64,000 nt of DNA, taken from sequence record OR062527; one strand, written 5' to 3'. Below the pieces are notes generated by a model. It searched no databases. It saw only the letters and a list, made by a program, of their open reading frames with translations, and was not told the DNA's origin. This document shows positions 15,591 to 63,453 of the stretch, in pieces. The translations under genes were made by a program, and so were the position numbers. This stretch comes from Escherichia phage vB_EcoM_11B_SA_NWU. Position 1 is the first letter of the stretch. Every line of letters starts with the position of its first letter.

Positions 15591-15827
15591 TTAACCACCT
15601 ATTTCTGTAGGTGTAAACATTGCAGCATTTTTAGTTTTCCAAGTCGCTGCATCGGAAACTACATCAGAATAAGCTGCTTTTTCTGACGGAAAGATTTGAT
15701 AATGAGAATCTGCAATACGATGTTCATTTGAATATACATCAAATGCTACAGAAACTTCCATACCTTTAACTTCTTTGCCTTCACCCGCTGGATGAGTAAA
15801 GGTCTTGATGTTAACGAAACCACCCAT
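15591..15827 (-). CDS. soc: small outer capsid protein Soc (78 aa)
   Basis: Close match to T4 Soc as recalled (VNIKTF...VSVAF...HYQ.FPSEKAAYS); TATAAATA late promoter upstream; terminator downstream. Confidence 0.85.
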   Translation of the reverse strand: MGGFVNIKTFTHPAGEGKEVKGMEVSVAFDVYSNEHRIADSHYQIFPSEKAAYSDVVSDAATWKTKNAAMFTPTEIGG

Positions 15828-15858: not shown

Positions 15859-15866
15859 TATTTATA
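15859..15866 (-). promoter_or_regulatory. late promoter -10 element TATAAATA upstream of soc
   Basis: Exact TATAAATA on the minus strand about 31 nt before the soc ATG. Confidence 0.65.
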
Positions 15867-16598: not shown

Positions 16599-16799
16599 AT
16601 GGTACAAAAATTAATGGCACTTGTTAATGCCATAAAAGGTAATAAAAAACGTATAGCTTTTACTATTTCTGCTATGGTAGGAATTTTACTCTGGAACTTT
16701 ATTCTATCACCAATTGCAATTGCGCATGGTGTTAATATTCCAGTAGTTACTCTTGATACATTCGTAGATTTAGCATTTGCTTTAGTTGGGTTAATTTAA
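16599..16799 (+). CDS. small hydrophobic membrane protein (66 aa) on the opposite strand, convergent with gene 61
   Basis: Only plus-strand ORF filling an otherwise gene-free gap (16528-16795); AAGGAGG Shine-Dalgarno 4 nt before ATG; two predicted transmembrane segments. Confidence 0.45.
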   Translation: MVQKLMALVNAIKGNKKRIAFTISAMVGILLWNFILSPIAIAHGVNIPVVTLDTFVDLAFALVGLI

Positions 16800-17824
16800 A
16801 TCTTAGCATATTTAGATAGCCGCATTTTAGCCATCAACCCCTGGGCAATATTATTTTTCATATATTCCATAATTTGTTCAGGGGTTGCACCTTCCTTTCT
16901 AATCATATCATTAACATCTTTTGATTTCCAGGGAGATTTATCCCAAAACATAACCCTTTCTCCTGCATCAACTAATTTAGTCATTCGCTTAATAGTGTCA
17001 GGATGACGAGGTTCATTATCTAAGACCCACACACGCCTATCTTTAAATGGAACAACTTCTAGGTCTAATTGACCGCCCGTAATAGCTATACCATTTTCAA
17101 TAAAAAGTGAATCTATAGGTCCTTCTAGAACATATACATCGCCATCTTTAACTCGTTCGACTCCATATATTTTTGTTGCCTCAGGATAAGCTTTAATGGT
17201 GATATATTTTTGAGGAGCATCTTTCTTTAATGCACGTCCTTGAAAAGACTCAGCTTTTCCATTAGCATTATAAATTGGAATAACAAGACGAGGCTCAGAA
17301 ATTTCCTTTTTGTATGTTCCCGGTGCTATGCTATTAACTAATTTAGGCCATTCGGTTGTAAACCAAAGATATTTCCATTTATCCTTTGGAATACAACGAG
17401 CTTTTACATATTTTATAATTGGATGGTCTTCCGCCAGTTTATCTAATCTAACACATGACGGAAGAGATTTAATTATTTTCTTCTCAGGTTGTTTAGGAAG
17501 TTCTTTAGGTTTTTCTACTGGACGACTTTTACCTTTTTCTTTTCTTATTTCAAAGATATACTCACGATATAAATCAGGTTCAAACTCCTTTAAATATATT
17601 CCGATTGGTGCGTGATAGTTACAGTTATAACAATGAATATTTCCTTCATTATTATCACCATAATACCATCCACGAGCTTTATTCTGATCGGTTTTTGAAT
17701 CTCCACAAACGGGGCATCTAAACCGCAATTTAAAAGTTGAACTATTATTTACTTGTGTGAATTTAGGTAAATGAGCCAATGCACGATACGCAAACTCATT
17801 ATCAATCCAAGGTATTGATGACAT
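16796..17824 (-). CDS. 61: DNA primase gp61 (342 aa)
   Basis: Zinc-finger CPVCGD...CYNC; length 342 aa as in T4 gp61; adjacent to the 41 region. Confidence 0.9.
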   Translation of the reverse strand: MSSIPWIDNEFAYRALAHLPKFTQVNNSSTFKLRFRCPVCGDSKTDQNKARGWYYGDNNEGNIHCYNCNYHAPIGIYLKEFEPDLYREYIFEIRKEKGKSRPVEKPKELPKQPEKKIIKSLPSCVRLDKLAEDHPIIKYVKARCIPKDKWKYLWFTTEWPKLVNSIAPGTYKKEISEPRLVIPIYNANGKAESFQGRALKKDAPQKYITIKAYPEATKIYGVERVKDGDVYVLEGPIDSLFIENGIAITGGQLDLEVVPFKDRRVWVLDNEPRHPDTIKRMTKLVDAGERVMFWDKSPWKSKDVNDMIRKEGATPEQIMEYMKNNIAQGLMAKMRLSKYAKI

Positions 17825-17826
17825 TT

Positions 17827-17991
17827 TTACTCTTCTTTTTCTTTAGATTCCTCTTTTTTCTTTTTAGGAATCTGTTCAGGACCTTTATTTACTACAGCCC
17901 CTGACGTTGTTCCAGTAGAGATATTTTCAGGATTACCACCTGAATCTCCAGCGACCATATCTTCTTTAATAAATTCTTTATATGTTTTCAT
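17827..17991 (-). CDS. micro-ORF (54 aa) with capsid-targeting-sequence-like N-terminus MKTYKEFIKE and Lys/Glu-rich tail
   Basis: Hand-translated; AGAGGT Shine-Dalgarno; N-terminus resembles the internal-protein CTS MKTYQEFIAE. Confidence 0.45.
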   Translation of the reverse strand: MKTYKEFIKEDMVAGDSGGNPENISTGTTSGAVVNKGPEQIPKKKKEESKEKEE

Positions 17992-18036
17992 ATTAACCTC
18001 TATTCATAAAAGCATTAAAAATTTGGTCATCAATAG
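17989..18036. repeat. direct repeat copy 1 (about 48 bp, roughly 94% identical to copy 2)
   Basis: catattaacct(c/t)tattcataaaagcattaaaaatttg...caataga spans the 61.1-like C-terminus, stop, ribosome-binding site and next ATG. Confidence 0.7.
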
Positions 18037-18349
18037 ATGGCGCAGTAATATTTTCTGCATCATTTAGCAAATCATTAATTTCATCAGATAGCATAACACA
18101 TGTACCTTTATTTCCTGTAATTGTTACTGCACAATTACGAACGTTTTCTTTATCAAATTTTAGGTTAATATTTTCGTAGTGAAAATCCTTTAATGCCGAA
18201 TATATCTTTAAAATGAAATTGTCTTTTACTACAATAAACCCAACCTCACTATTAAAACGCGGTTCATGGAAACTGTAATAAACCTTTTCATCTATAAAAT
18301 CGTATGAAATTTTTTCCATTTTTAAATATGAAAATTCAGAACTATACAT
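17993..18349 (-). CDS. 61.1-like protein (118 aa)
   Basis: Minus-strand ORF; C-terminal 14 codons and the downstream junction duplicated at the end of the next gene. Confidence 0.55.
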   Translation of the reverse strand: MYSSEFSYLKMEKISYDFIDEKVYYSFHEPRFNSEVGFIVVKDNFILKIYSALKDFHYENINLKFDKENVRNCAVTITGNKGTCVMLSDEINDLLNDAENITAPSIDDQIFNAFMNRG

Positions 18350-18394
18350 ATTAACCTTTATTCATAAAAGCATTAAAAATTTGATCGTCAATAG
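18347..18394. repeat. direct repeat copy 2
   Basis: Same junction module at the 61.2-like C-terminus. Confidence 0.7.
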
Positions 18395-18983
18395 AAACTT
18401 TTACTTTAGGCTGTTCTTCAAACGGTAATTCATATCCACATATTACAATTTTGTGATCGATACCAAAATACACAGAAGCAATATTATTAATATTATTTTC
18501 AGTGAAATCTAAATCAACATCAATATCTTTTTGACTAACGCTCAAAGGATAATTAATACGAATAATTCGATTATCTTTAACAAAGATTCCACCGACATAC
18601 TCTGTGCTGCGTTTAAAGTTTACACGTTTCCTAAATGAAAAATATTCAGGTTCTTTATGGGCTCGACTCATAGGACTTAAAGTGTATTCCGAATATGAAA
18701 TATCAAATCCTACACCTTCAATATGAGCCAAAGTGTCATGATTAAACCAATTATAATCGTATGCCAAATCCATTAAATTGTAATATGTGAAAGGCACCGG
18801 ATTAACATCATATGTTGTACCTTTAAAATCTGCCCAGGCAACGATTTCGTTATCTTTAACAATTACAAAAATTGTGCCAATAAGATATCCACGGTTATTT
18901 TCATCAGGCGTTATATTATAACATTGTGCATCAGGAAATTTACCGTATTTAAACGGTGGATTTTTGTGCATATAATAAATCAT
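18351..18983 (-). CDS. 61.2-like protein (210 aa); position of T4 anti-DarT factor AdfA
   Basis: Synteny between 61 and sp; C-terminus IDDQIFNAFMNKG shared with the 61.1-like ORF. Confidence 0.5.
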   Translation of the reverse strand: MIYYMHKNPPFKYGKFPDAQCYNITPDENNRGYLIGTIFVIVKDNEIVAWADFKGTTYDVNPVPFTYYNLMDLAYDYNWFNHDTLAHIEGVGFDISYSEYTLSPMSRAHKEPEYFSFRKRVNFKRSTEYVGGIFVKDNRIIRINYPLSVSQKDIDVDLDFTENNINNIASVYFGIDHKIVICGYELPFEEQPKVKVSIDDQIFNAFMNKG

Positions 18984-19804: not shown

Positions 19805-19839
19805 AGACTACTATACCATAGTCTTGTCAGCTTGTAAAC
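19805..19839 (-). promoter_or_regulatory. T4-type early promoter upstream of dmd
   Basis: GTTTACAAGCTGACAAGACTATGGTATAGT; -10 between CAAGACTA/TAGTCTTG inverted repeats. Confidence 0.55.
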
Positions 19840-21266
19840 TAAAATTTTAATTCATTTGCCAAAGCATCTAACTGAGCTCGAGCTGATTCGTTTCTTTGAT
19901 AGCGATTCTGTTCAGCCTGAATCTGTTGTGAACCTGCTACTTCACTCACTTCAGTTGGAGTAGAATCTTGTTCAATTTCTACCCATTTCTGATTTCCTTT
20001 TTGAACACCCATCAAAAACTTATTCCACTTATTCTTATCACCATATCGTGATTTGATTTGCTTAATGAGTTGTTGTTCAGCAGCTGCTAACTCTTCAGTT
20101 TCAATGACCGCAAGCATAAAATCAGCTGTTGCTGGAAGACCAGCAGATTCTGCGATATCACTCATGTTAACATCAGAAGAGTCCCAAGCTTGTTTACCAA
20201 CCTGTGCTGCAGTCCAAAGAACAGTTTCGGTTTCAACAGCCAGAGCACGTAATTCCTCTGCAATAGCTTTAACAGTTGTGTAACTATTTTCTGAATAAAC
20301 TCTAATGCGGCAAGATTTACAAATACCTAGATAGTCGACAATAATAATTGTTGGAACAAAATTCTTTTTGAGCTTCAATTCATTCAAGAGAGACCTGAAT
20401 GTGTTAGCATCTGCCCCACCAGTGGGATACTGTTTAACGATTAAACGACCGAGGGTAGATTTCTCACGCCATTTTTCCATTTTTCCTTTATACTCAGCGT
20501 AAGAAATATGTCCATCATCAATATCATCAAGAGAAACATCGAGCATATTAGCATCAATACGTTTAGCGCAGACTTCTTCTGCCATTTCCATAGAGATATA
20601 AAGAACGTTATGACCAAGCTGCAAATAATCTGCTGCTAATGAACAAAGTCCTAATGATTTACCAACGTTAACGCCAGCCATTAAAACGTTCAGTGTTCCT
20701 GTCTCAGCTCCGCCTTTAGTAATTTTGTTTAGAATTCTGAGTTTAAATGGAACTTTACGAGCTTTATTCATATAAGATAGCCAGCGTGCTTCATAGTCAT
20801 CCATCCAATCATGACCAACGTAGCTATCAAATGAAATTGATAATGCTTGACGCATGATGTCAGGAATAGCACCAACATCCGGCATTTTCTTATTTCGTTT
20901 TTCTGGAGGAAGCTCAGCATTAGTTTGAATTTCAATTATTTTAGACGTAGCATTAAACATCGCCCTTTGCTGAACATATTTTTCTGTTTCTTTTACTAAC
21001 CAGCTGTGGTCTTCTGGAGAATCAGCCAGTTTTGAAATAAGTGTTTTTACACCAGAATATTCTGTTTCAGTAAATGAACTATTTTCTAATGCAACATTTA
21101 ACGCATTAATAGATGGAACGCTATGATACTCATTAACATGAGATTTAATTAATTTGAATGTATTTTTAGCTGGACCACTTTCAAAATATTCTGAATCCAT
21201 ATATGGCCAAACTTTTGAAAAATAAGCTTGATCAAATATGAGATGAGAAAGAATAATTTCTACCAC
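19839..21266 (-). CDS. 41: replicative DNA helicase gp41 (475 aa)
   Basis: DnaB-family Walker A GVNVGKS; 475 aa; N-terminus MVEIILSHLIFDQAYF matches T4 gp41 as recalled. Confidence 0.9.
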   Translation of the reverse strand: MVEIILSHLIFDQAYFSKVWPYMDSEYFESGPAKNTFKLIKSHVNEYHSVPSINALNVALENSSFTETEYSGVKTLISKLADSPEDHSWLVKETEKYVQQRAMFNATSKIIEIQTNAELPPEKRNKKMPDVGAIPDIMRQALSISFDSYVGHDWMDDYEARWLSYMNKARKVPFKLRILNKITKGGAETGTLNVLMAGVNVGKSLGLCSLAADYLQLGHNVLYISMEMAEEVCAKRIDANMLDVSLDDIDDGHISYAEYKGKMEKWREKSTLGRLIVKQYPTGGADANTFRSLLNELKLKKNFVPTIIIVDYLGICKSCRIRVYSENSYTTVKAIAEELRALAVETETVLWTAAQVGKQAWDSSDVNMSDIAESAGLPATADFMLAVIETEELAAAEQQLIKQIKSRYGDKNKWNKFLMGVQKGNQKWVEIEQDSTPTEVSEVAGSQQIQAEQNRYQRNESARAQLDALANELKF

Positions 21267-39630: not shown

Positions 39631-39954
39631 TTAGTCTTCTATGATATCTCTATCATATCCAAGTGAAATGAGAGTTTCTTTGAAGTGTTTAATGTTCTTT
39701 TGTCTAGAATCATTGATGAAAATGACTGGATAACGAATGTTAAGAGATGTGAATCCAGCGCGTTTAGCAAGAGATACAATCAGTGGACGATCATACTCAA
39801 TCTTACCATTATTTGTAAGAACTTTATAGAAAGTAAAAGGAGCATTGAGCTCCTTTAGAAGTTTTGTAACTGATTGACATCCAGGACAACGACCTACTTC
39901 ATCTGGAATTCCATAGACTTCAATCTTATTCTTTAAGTTCGAGTTTTGTTCCAC
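39631..39954 (-). CDS. nrdH: glutaredoxin/NrdH-like redoxin (about 107 aa; start codon uncertain, possibly GTG)
   Basis: CPGC redox motif after KIEVYGIP; located beside nrdG/nrdD; the track N-terminal extension is implausible. Confidence 0.45.
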   Translation of the reverse strand: MEQNSNLKNKIEVYGIPDEVGRCPGCQSVTKLLKELNAPFTFYKVLTNNGKIEYDRPLIVSLAKRAGFTSLNIRYPVIFINDSRQKNIKHFKETLISLGYDRDIIED

Positions 39955-40237
39955 GAGAAATAATTCCTTGGTAAGCCCAATAAGGAGGATTAACAGAATC
40001 CTCACCAGAGTTTTCTTCAGGAAAATAAACCTGGATAACGAAGCCGGATTCATCAAAGGTAAAATAAACCGTAGGCAGTTCACCTAACAAATCGGCACGA
40101 GCGTTGATTTCTTCGAGGTCTTGTTCACGTCCAGCCCAGAAGCTTGGGTTCAGACTACATTCATAGAAATAATAGTCATTACCGAACATATCAAAACCAT
40201 TCCAACTCTCTACTACATACCGCTCAAAACTAATCAT
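39926..40237 (-). CDS. hypothetical acidic protein (103 aa)
   Basis: Minus-strand ORF. Confidence 0.5.
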   Translation of the reverse strand: MISFERYVVESWNGFDMFGNDYYFYECSLNPSFWAGREQDLEEINARADLLGELPTVYFTFDESGFVIQVYFPEENSGEDSVNPPYWAYQGIISRGTKLELKE

Positions 40238-57412: not shown

Positions 57413-57454
57413 ATATACCCCTTTAGTTAGATAAACCTATTTATAACTTTTGCA

Positions 57455-62979: not shown

Positions 62980-63453
62980 TTATTTAAATGATTTGACGTA
63001 CTGAACAGAACCTTTACTATTCACAAAGGCAATTTTACCGTTTTTGTTATACATTGTGGCAGTACGTTGATAGCCATAAGTTTGTTTACCAGATTGATAA
63101 CCAACTAATGCAAAATTATCTTCACCCATTTTATTCTGTTTAGCGCGAATGCGTTCATGACCGTGAGCCATAAGAACCTTAGCATCACCAGTTGCAATGG
63201 ATCTACGAGTTTTTTCATCTTCAACTGTATTAACAAAGTCGTCAAATGAATCAAATTTAGCATGAGATTTATTATACAGTTTTCCATCTACTGCATAATT
63301 ATATCCCTGTACATCCATCTCAACTTCTGTACCATCATCCAATACAGCAGTGATTTTCTGTCCTTTTTTAAATTTCAAAAGATCAGTAAAAGATTCAGCA
63401 ATAATTTGAGAATTAATAGCTGCTTCAGTAATAAATTCTTGATATGTTTTCAT
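62980..63453 (-). CDS. capsid internal protein (IPIII-like, 157 aa) with capsid-targeting sequence
   Basis: N-terminus MKTYQEFITE matches the internal-protein CTS; immediately upstream of e as ipIII is in T4. Confidence 0.7.
   Translation of the reverse strand: MKTYQEFITEAAINSQIIAESFTDLLKFKKGQKITAVLDDGTEVEMDVQGYNYAVDGKLYNKSHAKFDSFDDFVNTVEDEKTRRSIATGDAKVLMAHGHERIRAKQNKMGEDNFALVGYQSGKQTYGYQRTATMYNKNGKIAFVNSKGSVQYVKSFK

Follow-up and report, generated by a model that had tools for sequence, protein, structure and literature searches.

Gene 61.1 of T4-like phages encodes a small conserved protein that resembles an internal-protein capsid-targeting sequence and the gp23 maturation junction

The internal proteins IPI, IPII and IPIII of phage T4 are processed by the prohead protease gp21 and injected, and they have a variable, folded anti-restriction domain as their mature part and are encoded in plastic IP loci. 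Likewise, gp21 makes small peptides from the core-associated precursors gp67, gp68 and gp22, whose genes are located in the late head-gene cluster. Some of the core fragments made by gp21 persist in T4 heads as the acid-soluble 'internal peptides II and VII'. The capsid-targeting sequence (CTS) of the internal proteins, which reads MKTYQEFIAE in IPII and IPIII, has found wide use as a means of loading foreign proteins into T4 heads. Targeting is determined mainly by residues 4 and 7 of this decapeptide (Tyr/Phe4 and Phe7), and processing is determined by Ile8 and Glu10 (PMC9026906).

The capsid protein gp23 is also matured by gp21, which removes a 65-residue propeptide after Glu65 (PMC9546572). 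In the unexpanded head, residues 66-105 of the processed form gp23* are disordered and point inward, where they probably touch the scaffolding core (PMC9546572). In the expanded capsid, the gp23 N-fist of 25 residues contacts four subunits and helps to form the Soc site (PMC9958956). Much longer removable segments are found in the giant Salmonella phage SPN3US, in which head proteins carry propeptides of more than 100 residues that are cut at x-x-E by a gp21-related prohead protease (PMC5694885). The manner in which proteins are sorted into the T4 scaffolding core was called 'mysterious' in a 2023 review (PMC9958956).

The window analysed here, a stretch of 64,000 nucleotides from Escherichia phage vB_EcoM_11B_SA_NWU (sequence record OR062527), covers the left part of the genome of a T4-type phage (Tequatrovirus). 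It includes a short ORF with the translation MKTYKEFIKEDMVAGDSGGNPENISTGTTSGAVVNKGPEQIPKKKKEESKEKEE (Table 1). Judged by its sequence, this ORF is the ortholog of T4 gene 61.1, which is already known (UniProt P39228) and carries the annotation 'hypothetical protein'. The initial annotation had presented the ORF as one that had been missed, which is incorrect, but it rightly took the ORF to be real, and the start, stop and translation are confirmed from the sequence. Residues 1-54 align with positions 1-54 of phrog_1823, the profile of the short-form gp61.1 family, with E = 7e-34. Identity to gp61.1 of T4, T2 and RB14 is 95-100%, and two residues differ between the window ortholog and the protein of T4 GT7. 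The 400 nucleotides surrounding the gene are 99.3% identical to those of phages such as vB_EcoM_JB75 and PYps55T, and at least 90% identity is found in 509 phage records.

The gene is tightly packed between its neighbours, although the spacing differs from the 3-nucleotide gap that had been described. The stop codon of an upstream ORF of 118 amino acids (positions 17993-17995) lies one nucleotide before the 61.1 start codon, and two nucleotides separate the 61.1 stop codon from the ATG of the 342-residue primase at 17824. The good Shine-Dalgarno sequence that had been proposed is present five nucleotides before the ATG, and T4 has the same ...AGAGGTTAAT ATG junction at its own 61.1 start. The 118-residue ORF is a paralog of the C-terminal half of gp61.2 (phrog_3781). 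Both products end in ...DDQIFNAFMN(K/R)G, and the last codons and RBS of the two genes (AATGCTTTTATGAATA[A/G]AGGTTAATATG) are duplicated, with repeats at about 18001-18030 and 18359-18388. There is no annotated ORF between 61.2 and 61.1 in the T4 records that were compared.

Table 1. Features of the 61.1 locus in the window, listed in the direction of transcription
Feature	Position	Strand	Description
Helicase gene 41	19839-21266	(-)	
Genes dmd, 61.4 and sp		(-)	Between genes 41 and 61.2, in this order
Gene 61.2	18351-18983	(-)	
118-aa 61.2 paralog	17993-18349	(-)	phrog_4122
Shine-Dalgarno GAGG	17997..18000	(-)	5 nt upstream of the 61.1 ATG, inside the last codons of the 118-aa ORF
Gene 61.1 ortholog	17827..17991	(-)	54 codons plus TAA stop, 5.9 kDa; ATG at 17991, TAA at 17827-17829
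CTS-like propeptide MKTYKEFIKE	17962..17991	(-)	Codons 1-10; gp21-type I-x-E end; cut predicted after Glu10
gp23*-like module DMVAGDSGGNPENISTGTTSGAVVNKGP	17878..17961	(-)	Codons 11-38; homologous to the first 28 residues of gp23* (66-93, N-fist region)
Charged tail EQIPKKKKEESKEKEE	17830..17877	(-)	Codons 39-54; Lys/Glu-mixed in Tequatrovirus
Primase gene 61	16796-17824	(-)	

There are 1,396 phage records that are matched by the 54-residue protein in a tblastn search, and they span phages of Escherichia, Shigella, Yersinia, Klebsiella, Enterobacter, Acinetobacter and Aeromonas. Comparisons between genera yield dN/dS values of about 0.07-0.25 with synonymous sites that are saturated, and 18 residues are invariant in an alignment of 14 short forms (defined below). 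The initial annotation had left room for an ORF that is not conserved; 61.1 is a real gene under purifying selection. Its position is also conserved. Among 21 loci from IMG/VR, 19 have 61.1 directly upstream of the primase gene, and the other two have a homing endonuclease between them. The same arrangement is found in T4, CC31, RB69 and the KVP40-like Vibrio phage phi-pp2.

The N-terminal decapeptide of 61.1 is identical to the CTS of IPII and IPIII at eight of ten positions. The sequences differ at positions 5 and 9 only, and Tyr4, Phe7, Ile8 and Glu10 are all identical to IPIII. Both the targeting residues (Tyr4 and Phe7) and an (L/I)-x-E motif (I8-K9-E10) are present, and the resemblance to a CTS that had been pointed out initially is stronger than was claimed, given that it includes all four determinant positions. 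Nor is this a match expected from chance, which had been named as one way in which the proposal could fail. We scored every Met-initiated frame of 30 or more codons on both strands of the window, 849 in total, by its identities to MKTYQEFIAE: 61.1 scored 8/10, an internal-protein gene at 62980..63453 scored 9/10 and every other frame scored 4/10 or less. This latter gene, on the (-) strand just downstream of the lysozyme gene e and thus in the ipIII position, encodes an internal virion protein of 157 amino acids (phrog_3155, E = 1e-101) with the CTS MKTYQEFITE, and it serves as a positive control for the comparison within the window.

The similarity extends to the DNA. The first 24 nucleotides of the window gene match those of T4 ipII and ipIII at 23 positions, and T4 61.1 (which begins MKTFKEFIKE) and T4 IPI are identical over their first seven residues (MKTFKEF) and first 21 nucleotides. 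There is also a weak N-terminal match to phrog_5341, a PHROG family named 'internal virion protein'. Short forms from other genera begin with MKTYKEFVNE, MKTFKDFINE, MKTYKEFVTE, MKTYKEFVKLNE or MKSFKEVMNE, and many metagenomic short forms begin with MK[TSI][FY]x[ED]F[VIL]xE. Because the determinants are matched and recur in the short forms of several genera, prohead targeting and gp21 cleavage are the best available reading of this N-terminus. A different ORF of 103 amino acids at 39926..40237 on the (-) strand (phrog_2749, function unknown) begins with MISFERYVVE, which has the CTS pattern at the key positions (aromatic residues at 4 and 7, Val8 and Glu10) and an overall identity to the CTS of just 2/10. 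This pattern is probably due to chance.

Residues 2-38 of 61.1 align without gaps to residues 57-93 of T4 gp23, with identity at 16 of 37 positions and E = 1e-8 in a pairwise BLASTP comparison, and hhalign reports a probability of about 94.6% for the relationship between the two proteins. When the profile of the long forms of the family was compared with every PDB sequence, the sole match was T4 gp23 (residues 51-103, E = 1.5e-6). The tblastn search with the 54-residue protein also retrieves gene 23 of Acinetobacter phage 133. In the alignment, Glu10 of 61.1 is paired with Glu65 of gp23, which is the residue preceding the maturation cut (L-T-E65/A66, wherein the slash marks the cut). The gp23 segment A-F59-G-S-F62-L63-T-E65 exhibits the same spacing of two aromatic residues, an aliphatic residue and Glu as is found at CTS positions 4, 7, 8 and 10. 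The gp23*-like module holds most of the invariant residues of the family, and of the 18 positions that never vary in the short-form alignment, nine have the same residue in gp23.

The likeness of 61.1 to gp23 thus runs across the cleavage junction and covers 28 residues of the gp23* N-terminus, and the long forms extend it to residue 103, whereas the A and P domains of the HK97 fold are absent from 61.1. The name 'major capsid (domain-containing) protein' is consequently wrong for a protein of 54 residues that has no HK97 fold and whose family is homologous to gp23 only at residues 51-103; the label 'major capsid protein' arises in some pipelines because of the similarity to the junction and N-fist. 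The corresponding segment of gp23 has hardly changed between T4, CC31 and Acinetobacter phage 133, and 61.1 is therefore an old paralog that has evolved separately. A test for co-evolution between 61.1 and its cognate gp23 was abandoned for the same reason. The Gol peptide of gp23 presumably starts about where the 61.1 homology ends. The idea that 61.1 is a decoy in the Lit/Gol system was set aside. Lit is encoded by prophage e14 of E. coli K-12, and the family extends far beyond the hosts that carry this prophage.

When 1.8 billion representative proteins were searched exhaustively with an HMM, 50 clusters were recovered. About half of these are short forms of 50-70 amino acids and the rest are long forms of about 125-165 amino acids (phrog_2086), and neither type has a match in Pfam or NCBIfam. 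Most other T4-like phages encode a long form of about 155 amino acids, in which a helical domain of about 105 amino acids replaces the 10-residue CTS. Long forms are annotated as 61.1 in CC31, Aeromonas phages 65 and Aeh1, phiR1-RT, Acinetobacter phage Ac42 and many phages of Klebsiella and Enterobacter. The homolog in KVP40 is annotated only as 'hypothetical', and its counterpart in Vibrio phage phi-pp2 is labelled gp61.1. The likeness of the long forms lies in their location upstream of gene 61 and in an [L/I]xE motif that is followed by MVAGDSGG..NIASG.TSG..NKGP and a basic tail. Their N-domain is absent from the window protein, which is matched by phrog_2086 at profile positions 109-154 only. 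The upstream ORF of 118 amino acids does not encode this domain either; it is the 61.2 paralog described above. The N-domain is characterized by an invariant W27 and the motif W..A.K.GIID..G..L.RP, and is predicted to be helical, with a pLDDT of about 80 across residues 10-70. A fold comparison gave no match for it, and a word-indexed homolog search with its profile returned only four proteins.

Of the 66 members scanned, 65 have a Glu zero to two residues ahead of the MVAGD core, and so do all 27 of the aligned long forms. If this Glu is taken as P1, the residue before the cut, then P3, located two residues before P1, is L, I, M, V or F in at least 50 of 65 members under naive registration. 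Aromatic residues at P4 and P7 are found in the short forms only, which would follow if the CTS takes the place of the N-domain. In these alignments, the family is composed of either the long domain or the 10-residue CTS, followed by [L/I]xE, 28 residues that resemble the N-fist, and a charged tail. The N-fist-like module and the charged tail are the only elements that are universal in the family.

Several relatives depart from these two architectures. In RB69 (AY303349, 1168..1634), a single frameshift splits the long-form 61.1 into RB69ORF032c and '61.1', and close relatives have an intact counterpart of 155 amino acids. The split stems either from an error in sequencing or from genuine pseudogenisation. 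In Pelagibacter phage HTVC008M (3486..5541), gp141 (201 amino acids, phrog_18642) has the long-form N-domain without the N-fist module, and the two ORFs that follow it start with the CTS-like sequences MRTYRAFKK... and MKTFTDF.... In this distant T4-like phage, several head-targeted proteins may be encoded side by side. One product of the region, gp143 (MKTFTDF, ..NVAGDG..), was examined as a distant bearer of the module, and hhalign provides no support beyond the first seven residues.

Among the proteins in BFVD, the long-form model matches four large ones with E of 2e-4 or less: A0A411BBR2 (672 amino acids), A0A7S5R3P1 (387), A0A6J7WVK5 (396) and A0A1B1IT15 (913). These may be domain fusions that could reveal function. 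Three metagenomic proteins of about 150-250 amino acids (P0040, P0054 and P0058), whose nearest phage relatives are KVP40-like Vibrio phages, carry in the same ORF a basic tail, then a second CTS-like stretch (..NFKQFVEGLE/ADK..) and an additional domain of about 100 amino acids. From this arrangement they look like polyproteins of two prohead-protease substrates.

The tail of the window protein is rich in Lys and Glu, as had been described. Its counterpart is net basic (KKRK...) in most other lineages, and in the long forms it aligns with residues 94-103 of gp23 (AVMGMVRRAI). The predicted mature peptide of 44 residues and 4.6 kDa has a pI of 5.0 in Tequatrovirus, where it is net acidic, compared with 8.3-10.3 in other lineages. 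Both the module and the whole short form are predicted to be disordered. Alleles of the T6 type (62 amino acids; P0002 and P0004) have a tail that is frameshifted after an A-run in the Lys codons (...PKKKKRNLKKKKSKNVINTLD), which corresponds to an A-rich run at about 17830-17870 of the window. The ORF then overlaps the primase start. Since the frameshifted tail is still Lys-rich in the other frame, this allele suggests that the tail is constrained in its composition and not in its sequence.

There is no exact late promoter motif (TATAAATA) upstream of 61.1, where only sites with one mismatch are found. The nearest of these (18001-18008) coincides in part with the RBS and probably does not function. 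Only two exact copies exist in the entire 64 kb, at 15859..15866 and 57438..57445 on the (-) strand, while about 11 are expected by chance, and thus the motif appears to be avoided in the early region. The copy at 15859..15866 is located just upstream of soc (15591..15827). The 61.1 transcript is classed as 'early', as are the transcripts of ipII and ipIII, whose protein products accumulate late (PMC9697503). Early transcription, which matches the location of 61.1 in a cluster of early genes for replication, therefore need not preclude a role in the head. Gene 40, which is annotated as a head vertex assembly chaperone and has an early transcript, is found in the same region.

The T4 protein itself was undetected in one time-resolved infection proteome in which its neighbours 61.2, sp, 61.4 and dmd were detected (PMC9697503 Table S2). 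In addition, gp61.1 is absent from published inventories of T4 core and head components (including PMC9546572), and no virion proteomics study naming 61.1 was found in the literature searched. In that literature, from which the main T4 genome review was outside our search, gp61.1 or P39228 is mentioned in genome tables and one proteomics table only, and we found nothing on its function, a CTS or homology to gp23.

These features lead us to consider the possibility that 61.1 is delivered to the prohead core by its propeptide, either the CTS or the long domain, and that cleavage by gp21 after Glu10 releases a peptide of about 44 residues. We advance this model tentatively and place it somewhat short of an even chance. 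Residues 1-10 would hold gp61.1 on the scaffolding core while the prohead assembles, as in IPII and IPIII. Once the prohead is complete, gp21 would cut after Glu10 (I-K-E/D), at the position that aligns with L-T-E65/A66 of gp23. The predicted product begins with DMVAGDSGGNPENISIGTTSGAVVNK, has a non-tryptic N-terminus at Asp11, and would be a disordered peptide that combines the 28-residue N-fist paralog with the charged C-terminus. Because this is the sole part conserved across the whole family, the released peptide would be the functional entity. Perhaps it stays with the DNA as an internal peptide, binds to N-fist sites of gp23, or exits through the capsomer pores. The P1' residue of 61.1 is Asp, as opposed to the Ala or Ser found at the gp21 sites of gp23, gp24 and the internal proteins. 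The start of Alt (MELITELFDE/D) was considered as a precedent for Asp at P1' and was set aside, as its reported processing is at ITE-6 and not at Glu10. Further points that weigh against the model are the setting of the gene among early replication genes, its constant linkage to the primase gene, the lack of a late promoter, and the absence of gp61.1 from the time-course proteome and the published inventories.

In most other T4-like phages, the domain of about 105 residues together with [L/I/M/V]-x-E would act as a long targeting propeptide that is replaced by the CTS in T4. Given that the two are swapped in several genera, the simplest view is that both may be removable targeting propeptides. 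SPN3US provides a precedent for this reading of the N-domain by analogy only, as there is no sequence relationship. Targeting by the long forms is pure conjecture, because they have neither a CTS-like N-terminus nor aromatic residues at P4 and P7.

The proposed peptide would differ from its closest described counterparts in several respects. With the internal proteins, 61.1 shares the type of decapeptide, the determinants at positions 4, 7, 8 and 10, and the I-x-E motif, all of which are known here from sequence. Unlike theirs, its mature part consists of 44 disordered residues that are strongly conserved across the Straboviridae, its gene adjoins that of the primase, and it has orthologs in other genera that carry a 105-residue domain instead of a CTS. 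In contrast to gp67, gp68 and gp22, it is transcribed early, and it has never been reported among these peptides. Regarding the earlier proposal of a protein that is packaged and injected with the DNA, the CTS-like N-terminus holds up and head targeting is its best reading, but the protein was not seen in the one T4 time course noted above.

Alternatively, 61.1 might function outside of the head, where it would be present early as a mimic of the gp23 junction and serve as a decoy or competitor for gp21, the gp22 core or gp23 subunits. Such a mimic would damp premature cleavage or assembly and would not be packaged cargo. This idea accommodates the early transcript class, the lack of a late promoter, a region of homology that spans exactly the cleavage junction and the N-fist, and the disordered, peptide-like character of the protein; moreover, T4 is already annotated as having a separate gp21 inhibitor, inh. 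We nevertheless judge it unlikely, because a working CTS would pull the protein into the core anyway, the four CTS determinants are conserved in the short forms, and an early transcript does not distinguish 61.1 from ipII and ipIII. Similarly improbable is a role in replication, wherein DNA or the primosome is the binding partner of the module and its basic tail, the gene is kept beside 61 because the two products cooperate or are translationally coupled, and the likeness to the CTS and gp23 is a historical residue. The constant position immediately upstream of the primase gene from T4 to KVP40-type phages, the two-nucleotide spacing between stop and start codons in the window, early expression and the Lys/Arg-rich tails of most lineages are all compatible with such an accessory factor. 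A function in replication leaves unexplained the selection that maintains the CTS determinants and the P3/P1 motif, and it does not fit well with a module whose only detectable homolog is a capsid protein junction or with the net acidic tail in Tequatrovirus. In addition, we know of no report that the reconstituted T4 replisome needs a factor like 61.1.

Another possibility keeps the targeting and cleavage proposed above and changes only what becomes of the peptide, which would fill empty N-fist sites near the gp24 pentamers or the portal and thereby stabilise these special vertices. The identity to gp23 of half of the 18 residues invariant among short forms suits this role, as does the fact that the gp23 N-fist touches four subunits and contributes to the Soc site (PMC9958956). 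There is also an unassigned density under gp24*, for which one option offered is 'another digested core protein' (PMC9546572). However, this density is helical and lies inside the capsid, whereas the N-fist comes to rest on the outer surface (PMC9546572, PMC9958956), no extra chain resembling an N-fist has been reported in maps at 3.3-3.4 angstrom, and the module is predicted to be disordered. Thus, we regard a lattice-filling role as quite improbable. Finally, the ORF could be a decaying remnant of a partial duplication of gene 23, or a chance ORF without function. Other partial duplications are annotated in T4 (alt.-1 and alt.-2), and the protein went undetected in one proteome, but this explanation is scarcely tenable and is effectively refuted by conservation across genera with saturated dS and dN/dS of 0.07-0.25, by the occurrence of the gene in about 1,400 genome records, and by its 18 invariant residues and good Shine-Dalgarno sequence.

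To return to the head-targeted peptide, a more specific form of the model can be proposed, in which 61.1 is a stand-alone copy of the gp23 junction and N-fist that is delivered to the core by interchangeable propeptides and released by gp21 as an unrecognised head peptide. Because 61.1 is continuous with an internal-protein CTS at residues 1-10 and with gp23 at residues 2-38, the CTS would be the same element as F59-x-x-F62-L63-x-E65 of gp23. This fuller version is possible, though we hold it to be rather doubtful as a whole.

Gene 61.1 was known previously, and what is new here is the alignment of residues 2-38 to gp23 and the proposed reading of the CTS and N-domain. The protein links the CTS of the internal proteins with the gp23 propeptide junction and N-fist, which had been treated separately. 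Whichever explanation is correct, many database entries have been given the name 'major capsid protein' automatically and in error. Even if 61.1 stays outside the head, it is a conserved early mimic of a capsid maturation site, and its role would call for an explanation. If it is packaged and processed, then it would be an additional conserved component of one of the best-studied virions, it would suggest that the CTS mimics residues 56-65 of gp23, and its natural propeptide swaps (10 versus 105 amino acids) would be of use for dissecting targeting. Should the CTS and the gp23 segment indeed be one element, 61.1 would provide a concrete handle on the unsolved localisation of proteins to the T4 scaffolding core.
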